UHGV virus genome: UHGV-1369056
From: a virus
Reading direction: 5' to 3' (one strand)
DNA: 39,253 nucleotides
Shown here: positions 2,593 to 39,253 of the stretch, in pieces
How positions within the stretch are numbered: the stretch's first letter is position 1
Layout: each line of letters opens with the position of its first letter
Made by a program: the position numbers and the translations under genes
The notes under the pieces: generated by a model
The model's input: only the letters and a program-made list of their open reading frames with translations
Told to the model about the DNA's origin: nothing
The model's database searches: none

Positions 2593-5274
2593 ATGAGCGT
2601 CATCTCTATTGAAAAACACGACTTCTCTGATGTGTCGAACGCCATTGAGCCGTTTAACCTGCTGGCTGACCACTACGGGCAAGACCTTGCAGTCAAACAG
2701 CTTCAGCTTGAGCACGAGGCATACACTGAAGGCGAGCGACGTTTCATCAAGAACCTTGAGCGCCAGACTGAGCGCGGGGAACTGGCAGACAATCAGGTCG
2801 CCAAGCCTTTGATGCAGACTCTGGTCCCTAAGATTGCGCAAGCCGTAAGGGAGTGGCATGAAGGGCCAGACGGGAAGCTGTCAACCTCTCGTCCTAGCGT
2901 GGCGTTCACCATGTTGAGCACTGAAGAGAAGGCCGTCAAGGACCGCTCTCTGCGCATCTCATGTGAGTCTGCTGCGGTTATCATACTGAAGGTCATACTC
3001 TCCAAGCTGGTCAAGCCTGAAGGGATACCGATTACACCGATGGCCTCCGCGATAGGTCGCACACTTGAGGACGAAATCCGCTTCGGCCGCATCCGTGACA
3101 AGGAGAAAGAGCACTTCAAGAAGGCGATAGCTGATAACCTGAATAAGCGGGCCGGGGCGTCCTACAAGAAAGCCTACATGCAAGCGGTCGAGGCATCCAT
3201 GCTGGAGCAAGGCCAACTGGAAGATGCGTGGGGGACTTGGAGTCCTACAGAGGCTGTCCACGTTGGCATCAAGATGCTTGAGATTGTCATCCAGTCAACA
3301 CAACTGGTCGAGCTTAAGCGGTACGGTGCTGGCAATGCAGCGGCTGACGTAGAGATGGTCCACCTGTCAGACTGCTGGGTCAAGAAGATGGCACAACGAG
3401 GATTCAGCCTTGCGGGTATCGCTCCAGTCTACCAGCCTTGCGTCGTTCCACCTAAGCCGTGGACTGGTGTCGTAGGCGGTGGGTACTGGGCCAAAGGTCG
3501 CAGACCGCTGCCCCTGATTCGCTTAGGGTCTAAGTCAGCGGTGGCACGTTATGAAGACGTATACATGCCTGAAGTCTATGACGCTGTGAATATCATCCAG
3601 AATACACCTTGGAAAGTGAACAAGAAGGTGCTGGACGTGGTGAACATGGTCGAGAAGTTGAACAACACACCTATTGATGACATCCCTCAGATGGAGCCAC
3701 TGAAGCCTGAAGACTATGCGGGTGAGACTGAAGAGGAACTCAAGGCATGGAAGAAGGCTGCTGCTGGTATCTACCGCCGAGAGAAGGCCCGGCAGTCACG
3801 TAGATTGTCACTGAGCTTTATCGTTAACCAAGCGAACAAGTTCTCTCAGTTCAAGGCCATCTGGTTTCCGTACAACATGGACTGGCGCGGTCGCGTCTAC
3901 GCTGTGCCGATGTTCAACCCTCAGGGTAACGACATGCAAAAGGGTCTCCTGACTCTGGCAGTCGGTAAGCCTATTGGTGCTGATGGTTTCAAATGGCTGA
4001 AGGTCCACGGTGCAAACTGTGCGGGTATTGATAAAGTAACCTTCGAGGAGCGCATCAAGTGGGTGGAAGATAACCACGACAACATCATGGCTACCGCTAA
4101 GGCACCGATGGACAGCATTGAGTGGTGGGGTAAGTTAGACTCTCCGTTCTGCTTCCTAGCGTTCTGCTTCGAGTATGCTGGCGTAATGCACCACGGTTTG
4201 TCTTACTCCTGCTCGCTGCCGATAGCTTTCGATGGGTCCTGCTCTGGGATTCAGCACTTCAGCGCGATGCTTCGTGACCACATCGGTGGGCATGCAGTAA
4301 ACCTAACGCCATCCGGTAAGGTCCAAGACATCTATCGCATTGTGTCTGACCGCATTGAGGAGGAACTCAAAGTCCTGCTGGTTAACGGTACGGACAACGA
4401 GATGGCAACTCACGAGGACAAGAAAACTGGTGAGATTACCGAGCGTCTCAAGCTGGGGACACGAGAGCTGGCCCGTCAGTGGCTGACCTACGGTATGTCA
4501 CGCAAGGTCACTAAGCGTTCGGTCATGACTCTGGCCTACGGGTCGAAAGAGTACGGCTTCGCAGACCAAGTATACGAGGACATCGTGATGCCAGCGATTG
4601 ACTCAGGGTCTGGCGCTATGTTCACTGAACCAAGCCAAGCGTCTCGCTTCATGGCTAAGATGATTTGGGAAGCTGTGAGTGTGACAGTAGTTGCTGCGGT
4701 TGACGCGATGAAGTGGCTTCAAGGTGCTGCCAAGCTGCTGGCTGCTGAGGTGAAGGACAAGAAGACTGGAGAAATCCTGAAGCCTTGTCTTCCGGTACAC
4801 TGGGTCACACCTGATGGGTTCCCGGTATGGCAGGAATACCGCAAGAAGGATACCACTCGTCTGAACCTGATGTTCTTAGGGTCATTCAACCTTCAGCCTA
4901 CAGTCAACAAAGGCACGAAGAAAGAGCTGGACAAGCACAAGCAGGAGTCAGGCATTAGCCCGAACTTCGTCCACTCACAAGATGGTAGCCACCTCCGAAA
5001 GACTGTAGTCCACACTCACCGCAAGTATGGCGTGATGTCATTCGCAGTGATTCACGATAGCTTCGGGACCATCCCGGCTGACGCTGAGTATCTGTTCCGT
5101 GGCGTCCGTGAGACGATGGTAGAGACTTACCGCGACAACGATGTGCTGCTTGACTTCTACGAGCAGTTTGAATACCAGCTTCACGAGAGCCAGCGCGACA
5201 AGTTGCCTGAGCTTCCGAAGAAAGGTAAACTGAATATCGAGGACATCTTGTCTTCAGACTTTGCATTCGCTTAA
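2593..5274 (+). CDS. 1: Single-subunit DNA-directed RNA polymerase (T7 gene 1 homologue)
   Basis: 893 aa; C-terminus ...HSQDGSHLRK...IHDSFGTIPADA...FAFA and many internal blocks are characteristic of T7-type RNAP; SD upstream. Confidence 0.98.
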   Translation: MSVISIEKHDFSDVSNAIEPFNLLADHYGQDLAVKQLQLEHEAYTEGERRFIKNLERQTERGELADNQVAKPLMQTLVPKIAQAVREWHEGPDGKLSTSRPSVAFTMLSTEEKAVKDRSLRISCESAAVIILKVILSKLVKPEGIPITPMASAIGRTLEDEIRFGRIRDKEKEHFKKAIADNLNKRAGASYKKAYMQAVEASMLEQGQLEDAWGTWSPTEAVHVGIKMLEIVIQSTQLVELKRYGAGNAAADVEMVHLSDCWVKKMAQRGFSLAGIAPVYQPCVVPPKPWTGVVGGGYWAKGRRPLPLIRLGSKSAVARYEDVYMPEVYDAVNIIQNTPWKVNKKVLDVVNMVEKLNNTPIDDIPQMEPLKPEDYAGETEEELKAWKKAAAGIYRREKARQSRRLSLSFIVNQANKFSQFKAIWFPYNMDWRGRVYAVPMFNPQGNDMQKGLLTLAVGKPIGADGFKWLKVHGANCAGIDKVTFEERIKWVEDNHDNIMATAKAPMDSIEWWGKLDSPFCFLAFCFEYAGVMHHGLSYSCSLPIAFDGSCSGIQHFSAMLRDHIGGHAVNLTPSGKVQDIYRIVSDRIEEELKVLLVNGTDNEMATHEDKKTGEITERLKLGTRELARQWLTYGMSRKVTKRSVMTLAYGSKEYGFADQVYEDIVMPAIDSGSGAMFTEPSQASRFMAKMIWEAVSVTVVAAVDAMKWLQGAAKLLAAEVKDKKTGEILKPCLPVHWVTPDGFPVWQEYRKKDTTRLNLMFLGSFNLQPTVNKGTKKELDKHKQESGISPNFVHSQDGSHLRKTVVHTHRKYGVMSFAVIHDSFGTIPADAEYLFRGVRETMVETYRDNDVLLDFYEQFEYQLHESQRDKLPELPKKGKLNIEDILSSDFAFA

Positions 5275-5820: not shown

Positions 5821-5843
5821 CCTAAACTATCACTATAGGATTA
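5821..5843 (+). promoter_or_regulatory. Phage RNAP promoter, CCTAAACTATCACTATAGGATTA
   Basis: Consensus match; upstream of gene 1.1 (as T7 phi1.1). Confidence 0.8.
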
Positions 5844-5890
5844 GACTCAAGGTCATGACTTAAAGTCGTGGCCTTCATGATTAACCCTAT
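5834..5890 (+). promoter_or_regulatory. RNase III-like processing stem-loop (copy A of 3)
   Basis: Upper stem aaggtcatgac/gtcgtggcctt (5849-5859 / 5865-5875, including G-U pairs) with loop ttaaa, flanked by lower stem tatagg/cctata. Shares the motif agactcaaggtcat...gtggcctt with copies at 12895 and 35630, with compensatory changes. Confidence 0.55.
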
Positions 5891-8320: not shown

Positions 8321-8402
8321 GTGGTGCCGGGAGATGTACGAGAAGACTCTCAACCCGGACTACATTACGTTATACAACCAATGGAAGGAGCGCGGTTTAT
8401 GA
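8307..8402 (+). CDS. Small ORF (31 aa) overlapping the gene 1.7 end and gene 2 start (gene 1.8 position)
   Basis: Hand-read [34 protein letters not shown]; its stop overlaps the gene 2 ATG (ATGA). Position corresponds to T7 gene 1.8; identity not established. Confidence 0.3.
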
Positions 8403-8557
8403 CTGAGGTTGAGAAGAAATACATCGTGGAGCTTGAGGGTCGCGTTCAGTCCTTCGAGGTTCCGGTGTACGCAAAGTCTCTCGAAGAGGCTACCTTGAAG
8501 TCCCAAGAGTATGAGGACGCTGGGTTTGTGGTCGGACGGATTCGTCCTGAGGCCTAA
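8399..8557 (+). CDS. 2: Gp2-like inhibitor of host RNA polymerase
   Basis: [35 protein letters not shown] matches T7 Gp2 (SFEVPIYAETLDEA...AGFEVTRVRP). ATG 8399 with SD aaggag is preferred over the GTG at 8321 used by the ORF track. Confidence 0.8.
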
Positions 8558-8575
8558 ACTATCACTGTAGGACAG
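8553..8575 (+). promoter_or_regulatory. Phage RNAP promoter variant (CACTGTAGG core), CCTAAACTATCACTGTAGGACAG
   Basis: Consensus match except G at -3; upstream of the SSB gene (T7 phi2.5 position). Confidence 0.55.
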
Positions 8576-8614
8576 ACGTCCAGTTCGTAACTTTAAATTA
8601 GGAGATTTACACCA

Positions 8615-9313
8615 ATGGCTAAAGAGCAACTGAAGACTTTCACCACTCCGGTAGCTGGTATCGTTGAGCCTTACGCATGGCTGAACAAAGCAGACACCAA
8701 GTTTAATGAGCGTGGTGAGCATAAGGTTAACCTGACGTTCGACCTGAGCAACCCGAAGGTCCGTAAGATGATTGATGTCTTACAGAAGATTCACGACGAT
8801 GCGTATGCGAAAGCACTCGCAGACCACGAGAAGAACCCACCTCAGGTTCAGCGTGGCAAGAAGCCTATTGAACCACGAGAAGGCGACATGCCGTGGATTG
8901 AGAATGGTGACGGTACTGTTACCCTGAAGTTTAAATGCTTTGCGTCTTACCTGAAGGATGGTAAGTCAGAGCCTATAGTATTACGGTTCTACGACACCGA
9001 TGCTAAGTTAATCCGTGACGTCCCGAATATTGGCGCTGGCTCCAAACTGAAGGTCAAGTTTAAAGTCCTGCCGTTCAAGTGGAACGCTGCGACTGGTGCA
9101 AGCGTTAAGCTCCAGCTTGAGTCATGCCTTCTGGTAGAACTGAAGGAGTGGAAAGGTGATGGTGCTGGTGGCGATGGTGGCTGGGGTGATGATGAAGACC
9201 TCGGTACTGGCTACAAAGCGTCAACCGATGGTGACTTCGGGTCTGATGACTTCGGTGACGATGGTTCCGAAGGTGGTGACGACTCTAACTCTGGTGGCGA
9301 TTACGACTTCTAA
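8615..9313 (+). CDS. 2.5: Single-stranded DNA-binding protein (T7 gp2.5 homologue)
   Basis: 232 aa; KKPIEPREGDMPW, GGSKLKVKFKVLPFKWNAATGASVKLQLES and an acidic C-terminal tail ending in DF, as in T7 gp2.5. Confidence 0.95.
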   Translation: MAKEQLKTFTTPVAGIVEPYAWLNKADTKFNERGEHKVNLTFDLSNPKVRKMIDVLQKIHDDAYAKALADHEKNPPQVQRGKKPIEPREGDMPWIENGDGTVTLKFKCFASYLKDGKSEPIVLRFYDTDAKLIRDVPNIGAGSKLKVKFKVLPFKWNAATGASVKLQLESCLLVELKEWKGDGAGGDGGWGDDEDLGTGYKASTDGDFGSDDFGDDGSEGGDDSNSGGDYDF

Positions 9314-9765
9314 TGGCCCAATGGTCTGCAAAACGGGGGCACTCTGTGGGTGCCTACCGCTCTGGACTTGAAGCCAAGAACCAGCAGTGGCTGGAACAGA
9401 ACGGCGTCAAAGCGGAGTACGAAAGCCATTATATCAACTATGTGATTCCGGCTTCCGACCACAAGTACACACCAGACTTTATCCTTCCTAACGGTATCAT
9501 CGTGGAGACCAAAGGTATCTTCGATAGTGATGACCGTAAGAAGCACCTTCTGGTACGAGAACAACACCCTGAGCTGGACATACGGTTCGTGTTCTCAAGT
9601 TCCCGCTCCAAGTTATACAAAGGGTCTCCGACCACGTATGGCGCATGGTGCGAAAAGAACGGCTTTAAGTTTGCCGACAAGTTTATCCCAGTTGAGTGGC
9701 TGAGGGAGGTGACTGTACGTCTTCCTTCCGGCATCCTCATCCCTAAGAAGAAAGGAGTTAAGTGA
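9313..9765 (+). CDS. 3: Endonuclease I, Holliday-junction resolvase (T7 gp3 homologue)
   Basis: VGAYRSGLE, YVIPAS.H.YTPDF.LPNGI.VETKG, DSDDRKKHLLVREQHPELDIRFVFSSSRSKLYKGSPTTYG match T7 endonuclease I. Confidence 0.95.
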   Translation: MAQWSAKRGHSVGAYRSGLEAKNQQWLEQNGVKAEYESHYINYVIPASDHKYTPDFILPNGIIVETKGIFDSDDRKKHLLVREQHPELDIRFVFSSSRSKLYKGSPTTYGAWCEKNGFKFADKFIPVEWLREVTVRLPSGILIPKKKGVK

Positions 9766-10220
9766 TGATTACCTGTAAAGACCTTGAAGTTGGAACACGT
9801 TACAGATTCTCAAAGAACACACTGATGAATAACCCCCAATTCACTGATGCTGTTTTTGAAAAGCGAGAAGACCATAGCGTAATTGTGGAGAAGGGGTGGC
9901 ATCCTGAGGATTACATTGGGGAGACTACCAGCTGGAATGGTCACGAGACCTACAGTGTAGAAGTTGTTGAACAGCCTCAGGTCCTGCCAGCTTCTAGCGT
10001 ACCGCCTGTGACTGTGAAGCGTGAAGTCCTGACAATCGACAAGATTGGTGTAGGTCAGACGTTCATCGTCCACGGAAAGCCTGAAGAAGTTTACGTGAAG
10101 ATTAGCAACTCACACGTCTTCAACCATAAGCGTCTCCAGATGCACACCACGGACGCACAACGCTTCACCCAGCACCTGAATCTGGTGGTCGTAGAATTGG
10201 TGGTGTACAATGGTAAGTAA
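9765..10220 (+). CDS. Hypothetical protein (151 aa), accessory gene between endonuclease I and lysozyme
   Basis: ORF with SD aaaggag; ATG 9765 is preferred over GTG 9762; no recognisable motif; T7 has no gene of this size here. Confidence 0.5.
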   Translation: MITCKDLEVGTRYRFSKNTLMNNPQFTDAVFEKREDHSVIVEKGWHPEDYIGETTSWNGHETYSVEVVEQPQVLPASSVPPVTVKREVLTIDKIGVGQTFIVHGKPEEVYVKISNSHVFNHKRLQMHTTDAQRFTQHLNLVVVELVVYNGK

Positions 10221-10668
10221 GGTACAGTTCAACCCACGGTCCCGTACTGACGCTATCTTCGTTCACTGTTCGGCTACCAAGCCAGAGATGGACATCGGGG
10301 TAGAGACCATCCGTATGTGGCACAAGCAGCAAGGATGGCTGGACGTAGGCTACCACTTTATCATCAAACGTGACGGTACTGTGGAAGAGGGCCGCCCGGT
10401 CAATGTCGTAGGGTCACATGTTAAGGACTGGAACTCACGGTCTGTAGGCGTCTGCCTTGTAGGTGGAATAGACGCTAAGGGTCAGTTTGAAGCTAACTTC
10501 ACTCCAGCCCAGATGAACTCCCTGCGCAACAAGCTGGCTGACCTGAAGGTCCTGTATCCTCAGGCAGAAATCAAAGCACACCATGACGTGGCACCGAAGG
10601 CGTGTCCAAGTTTTGACTTGCAACGCTGGCTATCTACCAACGAACTGGTCACTTCCGACCGTGGTTAA
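10210..10668 (+). CDS. 3.5: N-acetylmuramoyl-L-alanine amidase / T7-type lysozyme (gp3.5 homologue)
   Basis: TDAIFVHCSATKP, GWLDVGYHFIIKRDGTVE, GVCLVGGID, ANFTPAQM, HH.VAPKACPSFDL.RW and C-terminal NELVTSDRG are near-identical to T7 lysozyme. Confidence 0.97.
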   Translation: MVSKVQFNPRSRTDAIFVHCSATKPEMDIGVETIRMWHKQQGWLDVGYHFIIKRDGTVEEGRPVNVVGSHVKDWNSRSVGVCLVGGIDAKGQFEANFTPAQMNSLRNKLADLKVLYPQAEIKAHHDVAPKACPSFDLQRWLSTNELVTSDRG

Positions 10669-10692
10669 TAAACTCTAAAGGAGAACAACTCA

Positions 10693-12677
<1,985 letters not shown>

Positions 12678-12730: not shown

Positions 12731-12895
12731 ATGCTAAGAAAACTTAAAGCTCGCTACCATCGGTTCATGTACAAATGGTGGAGCGACGCAGCAACCTGCC
12801 TGTCCAACATTCTGGGAGACCAGAGGTTCGACTCTAAGGCATGGAAGAAAGCTAACCGTAAGTTTATGTATCACTTCTTGCGTACAGACTTATAG
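12731..12895 (+). CDS. Hypothetical small basic protein (54 aa)
   Basis: ATG 12731 with SD aggaga, in frame with track ORF 12656..12895; position corresponds to the T7 4.x small genes. Confidence 0.4.
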   Translation: MLRKLKARYHRFMYKWWSDAATCLSNILGDQRFDSKAWKKANRKFMYHFLRTDL

Positions 12896-12941
12896 GTCTA
12901 AACTCAAGGTCATTCACATAGAGTGGCCTTTATGATTAGAC
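12895..12941 (+). promoter_or_regulatory. RNase III-like processing stem-loop (copy B of 3)
   Basis: Lower stem gtctaa/ttagac, upper stem aaggtcatt/agtggcctt, loop cacatag; same architecture as copies A and C; located just upstream of the DNA polymerase gene, like T7 R4.7. Confidence 0.55.
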
Positions 12942-35629: not shown

Positions 35630-35679
35630 GTGTTAGACTCAAGGTCATTACTATATGTAGTGGCCTTTATGGTTAACAC
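35630..35679 (+). promoter_or_regulatory. RNase III-like processing stem-loop (copy C of 3)
   Basis: Lower stem gtgtta/taacac, upper stem aaggtcattac/gtagtggcctt, loop tatat; between genes 18 and 18.5, as T7 R18.5. Confidence 0.55.
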
Positions 35680-35730
35680 TAACTAGTGGAGGCGACTCTA
35701 CGTGAAATCTGATAAACCGGGAGGGCAACT

Positions 35731-39005: not shown

Positions 39006-39253
39006 TGGCTCCTTAAGAGGGACGATGAGTTTTGGACCAAAAGTTTGAGACCACATCTCACAGTTCAAGAACCTCAAGTCTCCCCATAGGCCCTCTTTAA
39101 GTCCAGACCAAGGCCCTACCCCAGTCTATCATAAGGTTGGACCGGCTGTAAATACCTCAAGTCAACGATAGGTCATGACTATCGGTGGTGGTGGAGACGA
39201 TAGGTAGGGACTATTGGTCTGCCTCTGAGTCTCTATCTGTATAACCATAAGTC

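Follow-up and report, generated by a model that had tools for sequence, protein, structure and literature searches.

We analyzed the whole of UHGV virus genome UHGV-1369056 (39,253 nucleotides; hereafter, the window), and in particular gene 3.2, a small open reading frame (ORF) that lies between the genes for endonuclease I and an amidase. The protein it encodes, gp3.2, is built of two modules. Its C-terminal domain is constant. The N-terminal domain (N-domain) is not always present and can be exchanged; among related phages it has been swapped, stacked and lost, and it is hypervariable in places. The window is a whole Kayfunavirus genome, and gene 3.2 is genus-wide and genus-restricted. The gene was already known as gene 3.2 of phage K1F; its build of a constant core and a swappable head is not described in the literature that we searched. 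It is a middle (class II) gene; judging from sequence comparisons and structural models, we tentatively regard gp3.2 as a host-interaction or counter-defence factor and not a part of the replication or lysis machinery.

The exchange of the N-terminal module can be seen when the window is aligned with three phages that carry an N-domain of another type, type B. Nucleotide identity is mostly 93-100% through gene 3, drops to 40-76%, the background level of unalignable sequence, between positions 9763 and 9972, and returns to 83-100% from position 9973. Because identity falls and recovers this sharply at the junction of genes 3 and 3.2 and at the linker, the exchanged unit spans codons 1 to approximately 70. 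In the window it is a cassette of type A (codons 1-70; 9765..9974, + strand), delimited by the drop in identity to the type-B phages and predicted to form a small beta-rich domain. The downstream recombination junction is a Pro/Ser-rich linker, PQVLPASSVPPV (9975..10010, + strand), with the conserved sequence PQVLPASSVPP. This linker is kept in the long forms of types A-D, and its predicted local distance difference test (pLDDT) scores are low in both of the structural models described below.

Among 254 homologues aligned from a large protein collection, the first ~70 residues fall into unrelated families, and the residues from ~71 onward are almost invariant. We clustered the N-terminal regions by BLAST (157 unique sequences, with two tandem proteins and one frameshifted allele removed) and obtained 11 clusters: type B with 76 unique sequences, type A with 39, type D with 18, type C with 12, type E with six, and six singletons. 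Profile-profile comparison using hhalign related none of the types A to E to one another or to the C-terminal domain (probabilities of 18% or less). An internal duplication or a common ancestry of the N-domain types was rejected on this ground. In a census of phage genomes, type A occurred in 27 records, type B in 56 (K1F and EcoDS1 included), type C in two, type D in 11 and type E in four. Each genome had one N-domain copy, which in annotated records lies directly after the endonuclease gene or overlaps it. Two proteins carry N-domains in tandem, namely P0105 (C+A+core, 222 amino acids), encoded at the normal locus of a 39.8-kb contig, and P0121 (B+A+core, 226 amino acids). In P0124, P0133 and P0136, the N-domain is partly or wholly deleted, and the linker and core are intact. 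We also looked in the genome for the template of a diversity-generating retroelement, and found no direct repeat family involving 9765-9974. Given that there is no template copy and that whole domains are replaced, diversification of the retroelement type is unlikely. The sole frameshifted allele among the approximately 160 unique N regions is P0049 (157 amino acids, type B), whose first ~60 residues are out of frame and whose normal sequence resumes at GAWVLKENLEEI. Either the sequence contains an error, or the allele has a naturally frameshifted N-domain beside an intact core.

The constant C-terminal domain (residues 83-151; 10011..10217, + strand) is predicted to comprise six beta-strands and one short helix. 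It matches PHROG 16385 with an E-value of 2.3e-51 over residues 66-151, and also PHROG 15211; both families are labelled 'unknown function'. Homologue alignments place in this domain an invariant polar motif composed of Y110, S114-N-S-H117, F119-N120, Q125-M-H127-T-T129 and R133-F134 (10092..10166, + strand). The window protein meets the pattern Y..SNSH.FN....QMHTT...RF, and the motif residues are invariant in alignments A1-A4. In members with 30-43% identity, such as those of the Providencia phage PSTCR2 kind, Y110, S114, N115, S116, H117, F119, N120, Q125, H127, T128, T129, R133 and F134 are all invariant, and M126 is nearly so. The preliminary description had seen no obvious motif in this protein. 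That is incomplete, as the divergent homologues bring out both the invariant motif and the two-domain build. The C-terminal domain on its own makes a protein of 74-75 amino acids, and this is apparently the form found in most of the remaining ~120 records, or about half of the total. We saw such short forms in most Salmonella, Cronobacter (Dev2), Citrobacter and Shigella phages, in SH4 and in some E. coli phages. These comparisons show that the C-terminal domain holds the core function. About half of the phages manage with this domain alone, and it hardly differs between phages from many genera of Enterobacterales.

The two modules also differ in their patterns of substitution. We compared the ratio of nonsynonymous to synonymous differences (pN/pS) of the two domains within types, leaving out the last four codons of gene 3.2, which overlap gene 3.5. 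The N-domain and C-domain values were 0.40 and 0.07 in type A1 (nine sequences), 0.53 and 0.13 in type B1 (seven sequences), and 0.59 and 0.13 in type B2 (six sequences). The C-domain values are equal to or lower than those of gene 3 (0.11) and gene 3.5 (0.20), which were obtained as a reference from a run that mixed subtypes A1 and A2 and used no codon alignment. By parsimony, the 13 unique A1 alleles have undergone 22 nonsynonymous and 14 synonymous changes in the N-domain, and nine and 68 in the C-domain (Fisher p = 1.2e-7). Nine nonsynonymous against 68 synonymous changes in the C-domain are typical of a translated and constrained protein. Codon 25 in type A1 shows four nonsynonymous changes and no synonymous ones. 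In addition, the pooled synonymous divergence (pS) in type A1 is 0.06 for the cassette versus 0.29 for its own C-domain. Since the former is well below the latter, the cassette has spread laterally and recently across diverged backbones.

Within an N-domain type, variation is concentrated in patches. The entropy of the 76 unique type B proteins reveals hypervariable patches at positions 8-12, 28-33, 43, 49-51 and 64-67, separated by the invariant scaffold motifs GWPxGTIVTKC, LVES, KHG and TQPDGMWGAWV. The type-A subtypes have ten invariant positions in common. In independent nucleotide data from type B1, the 23 hypervariable codons had a pN/pS of 1.33, a value that comes from sites picked for their variability in seven sequences and for which we make no formal claim of positive selection; the other 52 N-domain codons had 0.15, and the C-domain had 0.13. 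With a scaffold at 0.15 and patches at 1.33, the N-domains are constrained folds with patches that change at or above the neutral rate.

Next, we consider the predicted structures and their remote similarities. Using an input of 29 sequences, AlphaFold2 predicted for residues 1-70 a small domain made largely of beta structure plus two short helices (pLDDT ~83-93). For the C-domain, a more diverse alignment gave a mean pLDDT of 80.7, with values of 90 or more over window residues ~92-141 (model residues 21-70). A Foldseek search of the PDB with the whole-protein model gave FeoA as the best match, which was not significant (E = 1.7). With the C-domain, nine of the 11 best PDB matches were NlpC/P60 proteins, again non-significant, with E-values of 0.4-1.6 and query-normalized template modelling (TM) scores of 0.42-0.52. 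In BFVD, the only matches at E-values of 1e-3 or less were the gp3.2 proteins of Penshu1, CR8 and IMM-002 and one unnamed entry of 142 amino acids; among the lower matches were many uncharacterized phage proteins of 70-90 amino acids with generic small beta folds. Pfam gave no match to the window protein at E-values up to 10 or to ten other N-domain types at E-values up to 1, and NCBIfam gave none to the window protein. PADLOC gave none to the window protein either, and for other N-domain types it gave two weak matches at E ~0.003-0.004 that are probably due to chance. The C-domain profile found no match among the PDB sequences. Thus, within Pfam, NCBIfam, PDB sequences and PADLOC, the window protein matched no described anti-defence family, and neither Pfam, PHROG, PDB and NCBIfam nor the 1.84 billion representative proteins searched below yielded homology to a housekeeping phage protein. 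As far as these sequence and model comparisons reach, no part of gp3.2 resembles anything characterized.

A search with the 1.4-kb region that spans genes 3 to 3.5 returned 223 phage records, with ~95% identity in the best cases, and nearly all of the records whose taxonomy we inspected belong to Kayfunavirus (K1F-like Studiervirinae). Of the approximately 223 related records, 221 gave a tblastn match to gene 3.2, the nearest at 98.7% identity. Because 221 records carry it, gene 3.2 is a core gene of the genus and not a novelty of the window. Phages 216Ecol046PP, SEA1f and Pipis encode hypothetical proteins that share 97-99% identity with the window protein. All of the annotated relatives that we inspected have an ORF marked at this position, usually as 'hypothetical protein'; the records of K1F, EcoDS1 and Dev2 use the name 'gp3.2', and none gives a function. 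In the searched literature, gp3.2 appears in a single paper, as a BLAST label, and we found no functional statement about it. The gene always follows endonuclease I directly, even in divergent Providencia phages, and the order gene 3, gene 3.2, gene 3.5 also occurs in K1F, Dev2, Vec13, PSTCR2 and a metagenomic contig. In T7, by comparison, gene 3 (10257-10706) and gene 3.5 (10706-11161) abut with nothing between them. The preliminary description had correctly noted this adjacency and presented the ORF as an unknown gene inserted between the two. It does lack a described function, but it had already been annotated and is gene 3.2 of K1F and its relatives; likewise, it is inserted only relative to T7, and in Kayfunavirus it is a genus-wide resident. 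Its conservation is strong.

Outside this group of phages, homologues are scarce. An exhaustive hidden Markov model search of 1.84 billion representative proteins returned 14 clusters only, and every one of them has this C-domain. Three divergent members were added when the C-domain profile was run in a word-indexed search, and scans of IMG/VR and JGI metagenomes gave 21 and 17 loci, respectively. No counterpart of gene 3.2 was found by blastn in 5,426 complete E. coli genomes, and a host origin of the cassette was rejected on the same result. We also noticed that three records, MT350292.1 (Enterococcus phage EFA-1), OR786095.1 (Staphylococcus phage MBBL139) and PV615262.1 (Acinetobacter phage vB_Aba_01KA), all contain a typical Kayfunavirus gene 3.2. 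Their host labels are therefore probably wrong or due to contamination.

The coding sequence of gene 3.2 (9765..10220, + strand; 151 amino acids plus stop) is defined by ORF calling and by its homologues (tblastn). The frame is open from a GTG at 9762 to the TAA at 10218-10220, and the likely start is the ATG at 9765. A Shine-Dalgarno sequence, AAAGGAG (9751..9757, + strand), was read 7 nucleotides upstream of this ATG, and the record of phage Pipis has a ribosome-binding site annotated at the equivalent position. Upstream, gene 3 (9313..9765, + strand) is an ORF annotated as endonuclease I in relatives; its stop codon TGA (9763-9765) overlaps the ATG of gene 3.2 by one nucleotide, the common A of TGATG. 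Downstream, gene 3.5 (10210..10668, + strand), an ORF annotated in relatives as N-acetylmuramoyl-L-alanine amidase, starts within the last four codons of gene 3.2 and overlaps its end by 11 nucleotides. On all of these points, namely the position and length of the ORF, its Shine-Dalgarno sequence and its overlaps at both ends, the preliminary description was accurate.

The same description had placed the gene in the class II operon. A phage RNA-polymerase promoter of the phi2.5 kind (8550..8571, + strand) opens a unit with genes 2.5, 3, 3.2, 3.5 and 3.7, and the next phage promoter (10901..10922, + strand) marks its end. Both are among the 11 copies of the promoter consensus CTAAACTATCACTATAGG, which stand at window positions 2498, 5818, 7574, 8550, 10901, 16983, 19804, 20810, 25783, 33060 and 38446. 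We found no terminator-like site and no sigma-70-type promoter in 8400-11100, and a scan of 9000-11000 against Rfam returned nothing. Because one promoter-bounded unit contains these genes, with no internal terminator or sigma-70-type promoter, gene 3.2 is probably co-transcribed with the class II genes. The arrangement suggests that it is co-expressed with them and that its translation is coupled. The operon claim is thus borne out for the single unit from 8550 to 10901, and its statement that the gene is translated as part of the operon is a reading of the sequence.

Several features of this interval vary among relatives. The annotated start of endonuclease I differs between records, giving forms of 150 or 139 amino acids (window 9313 or 9346), and the K1F record also annotates the internal-start products 3B and 3.5B. 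Phages PH1061 and SD6 have free-standing HNH endonuclease genes between genes 3.2 and 3.5 (2411-2782 in both loci, L003 and L029), and TM1 has an HNH endonuclease gene between genes 2.5 and 3 (1032-1478 in locus L030). The C-domain allele of PH1061 and SD6 shows a very high synonymous divergence from other type-A1 phages (dS 0.7-0.98), and it looks like a product of co-conversion of flanking sequence during homing. In Providencia phage PSTCR2, the gp3.2 homologue is separated from the endolysin gene by two extra small hypothetical ORFs of 117 and 79 amino acids (2777-3350 in locus L033). Because PSTCR2 carries two further ORFs there, the interval from gene 3 to gene 3.5 appears to be an insertion hotspot.

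Elsewhere in the window, an element of ~45-50 nucleotides, TTAGACTCAAGGTCAT...GTGGCCTT.ATG.TTAAC, is repeated at 5841-5889, 12891-12938 and 35633-35681, just after or near phage promoters; it may be a processing hairpin of the RNase III type. Positions 1-91 consist of about six tandem copies of a 13-nucleotide unit, ACAACCATAAGTC, and the last 11 bases (AACCATAAGTC, 39243-39253) run into this left-end ACAACCATAAGTC array. An explicit direct terminal repeat is absent, and the assembly seems to have been closed into a circle and opened inside the left-end repeat region.

How might such a protein work? Swapping, stacking, deletion and hypervariability form a pattern that we would expect in host-interaction or counter-defence factors and in modular 'polyvalent' conflict proteins. 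Most likely, the C-domain would bind a conserved host or phage partner, in a non-catalytic manner, through its invariant polar patch (SNSH.FN / QMHTT / RF). The N-domain, in turn, would most likely bind a strain-variable host factor, for example an immunity protein or another accessory host protein; alternatively, it may shield the constant core from host sensors. The cassettes themselves are swapped between phages by recombination at the junction of genes 3 and 3.2 and at the conserved linker. A more specific version, which we consider fairly unlikely on the present sequence comparisons, is that gp3.2 would be an 'antibody-like' counter-defence adaptor, in which interchangeable hypervariable recognition domains are joined to a constant effector or docking domain. 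The N-domain type and its patch residues would then set which strain-specific immunity protein is neutralized, and the tandem forms would be bispecific. If this speculation is true, gene 3.2 is a post-adsorption host-range determinant of Kayfunavirus.

Several points weigh against a host-directed role. The cluster of invariant Ser, Asn, His, Gln, Thr and Arg also suits a catalytic or ligand-binding site, and the status of a genus core gene fits a phage-internal role equally well. The whole N-domain has a pN/pS below 1 in every type compared (0.40-0.59), so that relaxed constraint on loops could explain the variability, and the patch codons were selected by the very property that they display. 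Neither the 1.84 billion representatives nor the phage-genome census contained an N-domain without a C-domain, which speaks against fully independent modules. Finally, we found no binding partner, phenotype or functional account of gp3.2 in the searched literature.

Other readings must therefore be weighed. It is unlikely, in our judgment, that gp3.2 has a phage-internal accessory role, in which it would modulate endonuclease I, the amidase/RNA-polymerase inhibitor, or a switch between replication and transcription, with the N-domains as tolerated add-ons. The invariant synteny, the overlaps with both the gene 3 stop and the gene 3.5 start, and a genus-core C-domain that is more conserved than gene 3.5 all fit such a role. 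However, the homologous genes 3 and 3.5 of T7 work with nothing between them, and the HNH genes of PH1061 and SD6 sit between genes 3.2 and 3.5 without the loss of either, which implies that the 3.2/3.5 overlap is not essential. Moreover, such a role would leave unexplained why there are at least 11 N-domains that can be swapped and why their scaffolds are constrained. Conversely, the N-domain could be a functionless 'moron'-like passenger under relaxed constraint, so that only the 74-residue core matters. Its absence from about half of the phages, its recurrent deletion and its domain-wide pN/pS below 1 would agree with this. We nevertheless regard a passenger as quite unlikely, given that the type B scaffold is as constrained as the C-domain (0.15 versus 0.13), that the type-A subtypes agree at ten positions, that AlphaFold2 predicts a confident N-domain fold from 29 sequences, and that P0049 is the one frameshifted allele among ~160 unique N regions.

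Two further possibilities concern the C-domain. It might be a small enzyme or a ligand sponge, acting for example on a nucleotide signal of host immunity, with the invariant Ser, Asn, His, Gln, Thr and Arg as its site. A polar cluster that is invariant down to ~30% identity would be unusual for a pure fold core; on the other hand, the domain has only ~70 residues and shows no likeness to a known sponge or phosphodiesterase family in Pfam, PDB, Foldseek or NCBIfam searches, and we rate this reading as very unlikely. A further reading takes the C-domain for what is left of an NlpC/P60-like (papain-fold) domain, now degenerate, that would bind or process peptidoglycan and aid the amidase at lysis; we consider it highly improbable. 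The gene does adjoin the amidase gene, and the nine NlpC/P60 proteins among the 11 best Foldseek matches include the non-catalytic RipD and reach probabilities of up to 0.92. By eye, GQTFIV...YVKIS...QMHTT resembles the NlpC/P60 strands GDLVFF...HVGIY...IHAS, a comparison that we take as a lead only. Yet all of the Foldseek E-values are 0.4 or more, Pfam gives no NlpC_P60 match even at E = 10, there is no conserved cysteine (the short form has no Cys at all), and the half of the fold that contains helices is absent. A reading of the sequence reveals no signal peptide or membrane segment either, and the BFVD matches are generic small phage beta proteins. Lastly, a chance ORF is virtually impossible; it is refuted by the nine versus 68 C-domain changes, by the presence of the gene in 221 genomes, and by the Shine-Dalgarno sequence and coupled starts.

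The host-directed reading that we favor would matter in practice for the host range of phages used in therapy. Kayfunavirus members such as K1F, LM33_P1 and numerous candidates for therapy find wide application against encapsulated strains of E. coli, Enterobacter and Salmonella. To our knowledge, adsorption alone poorly explains the host range of this genus. A genus-wide gene with a cassette-like, patch-variable N-half is a candidate for a post-adsorption determinant of host range or counter-defence. If its role is instead phage-internal, gene 3.2 would mark a difference between the middle-gene programmes of K1F and T7. Because gp3.2 is a small non-structural protein of which deleted and swapped variants occur in nature, the gene lends itself to allele swapping.

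Finally, we compared gp3.2 with known systems. The closest are gp3.2 of K1F, EcoDS1 and Dev2 and the 3.01 gene of Citrobacter phage CR8, which are like the window gene in position, overlaps and C-terminal domain. Their N-domains differ: K1F and EcoDS1 have type B, CR8 has type E and Dev2 has none, whereas the window has type A. The NlpC/P60 endopeptidases, RipD included, rank at the top of the non-significant fold matches to the C-domain, but gp3.2 has no catalytic Cys, no Pfam match and not the full fold. Among T7 proteins, gp2, gp5.5, gp5.7, gp5.9 and gp4.5 are small class II proteins directed at the host. Like them, gp3.2 is small, non-enzymatic in appearance, lineage-specific and encoded among DNA-metabolism genes; unlike gp3.2, to which they have no homology, they do not include a hypervariable domain that can be swapped. 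The polyvalent proteins of phages and conjugative elements, reportedly described by Iyer, Burroughs, Anand, de Souza and Aravind in 2017, are said to be strings of independent conflict-related domains. The modules of gp3.2 are similarly gained, lost, swapped and stacked (C+A+core, B+A+core), and its gene is placed before the late genes. However, gp3.2 is tiny (74-226 amino acids) and has no known conflict domain, and its N-modules never occur alone. The tail fibres and tailspikes of the T7 group have no sequence or fold similarity to gp3.2, but they share its division into a constant docking part and a cassette-swapped specificity part with sharp junctions. In gp3.2, the polarity is the opposite, with the variable part at the N-terminus, and the gene belongs to the class II unit and not to the structural genes.

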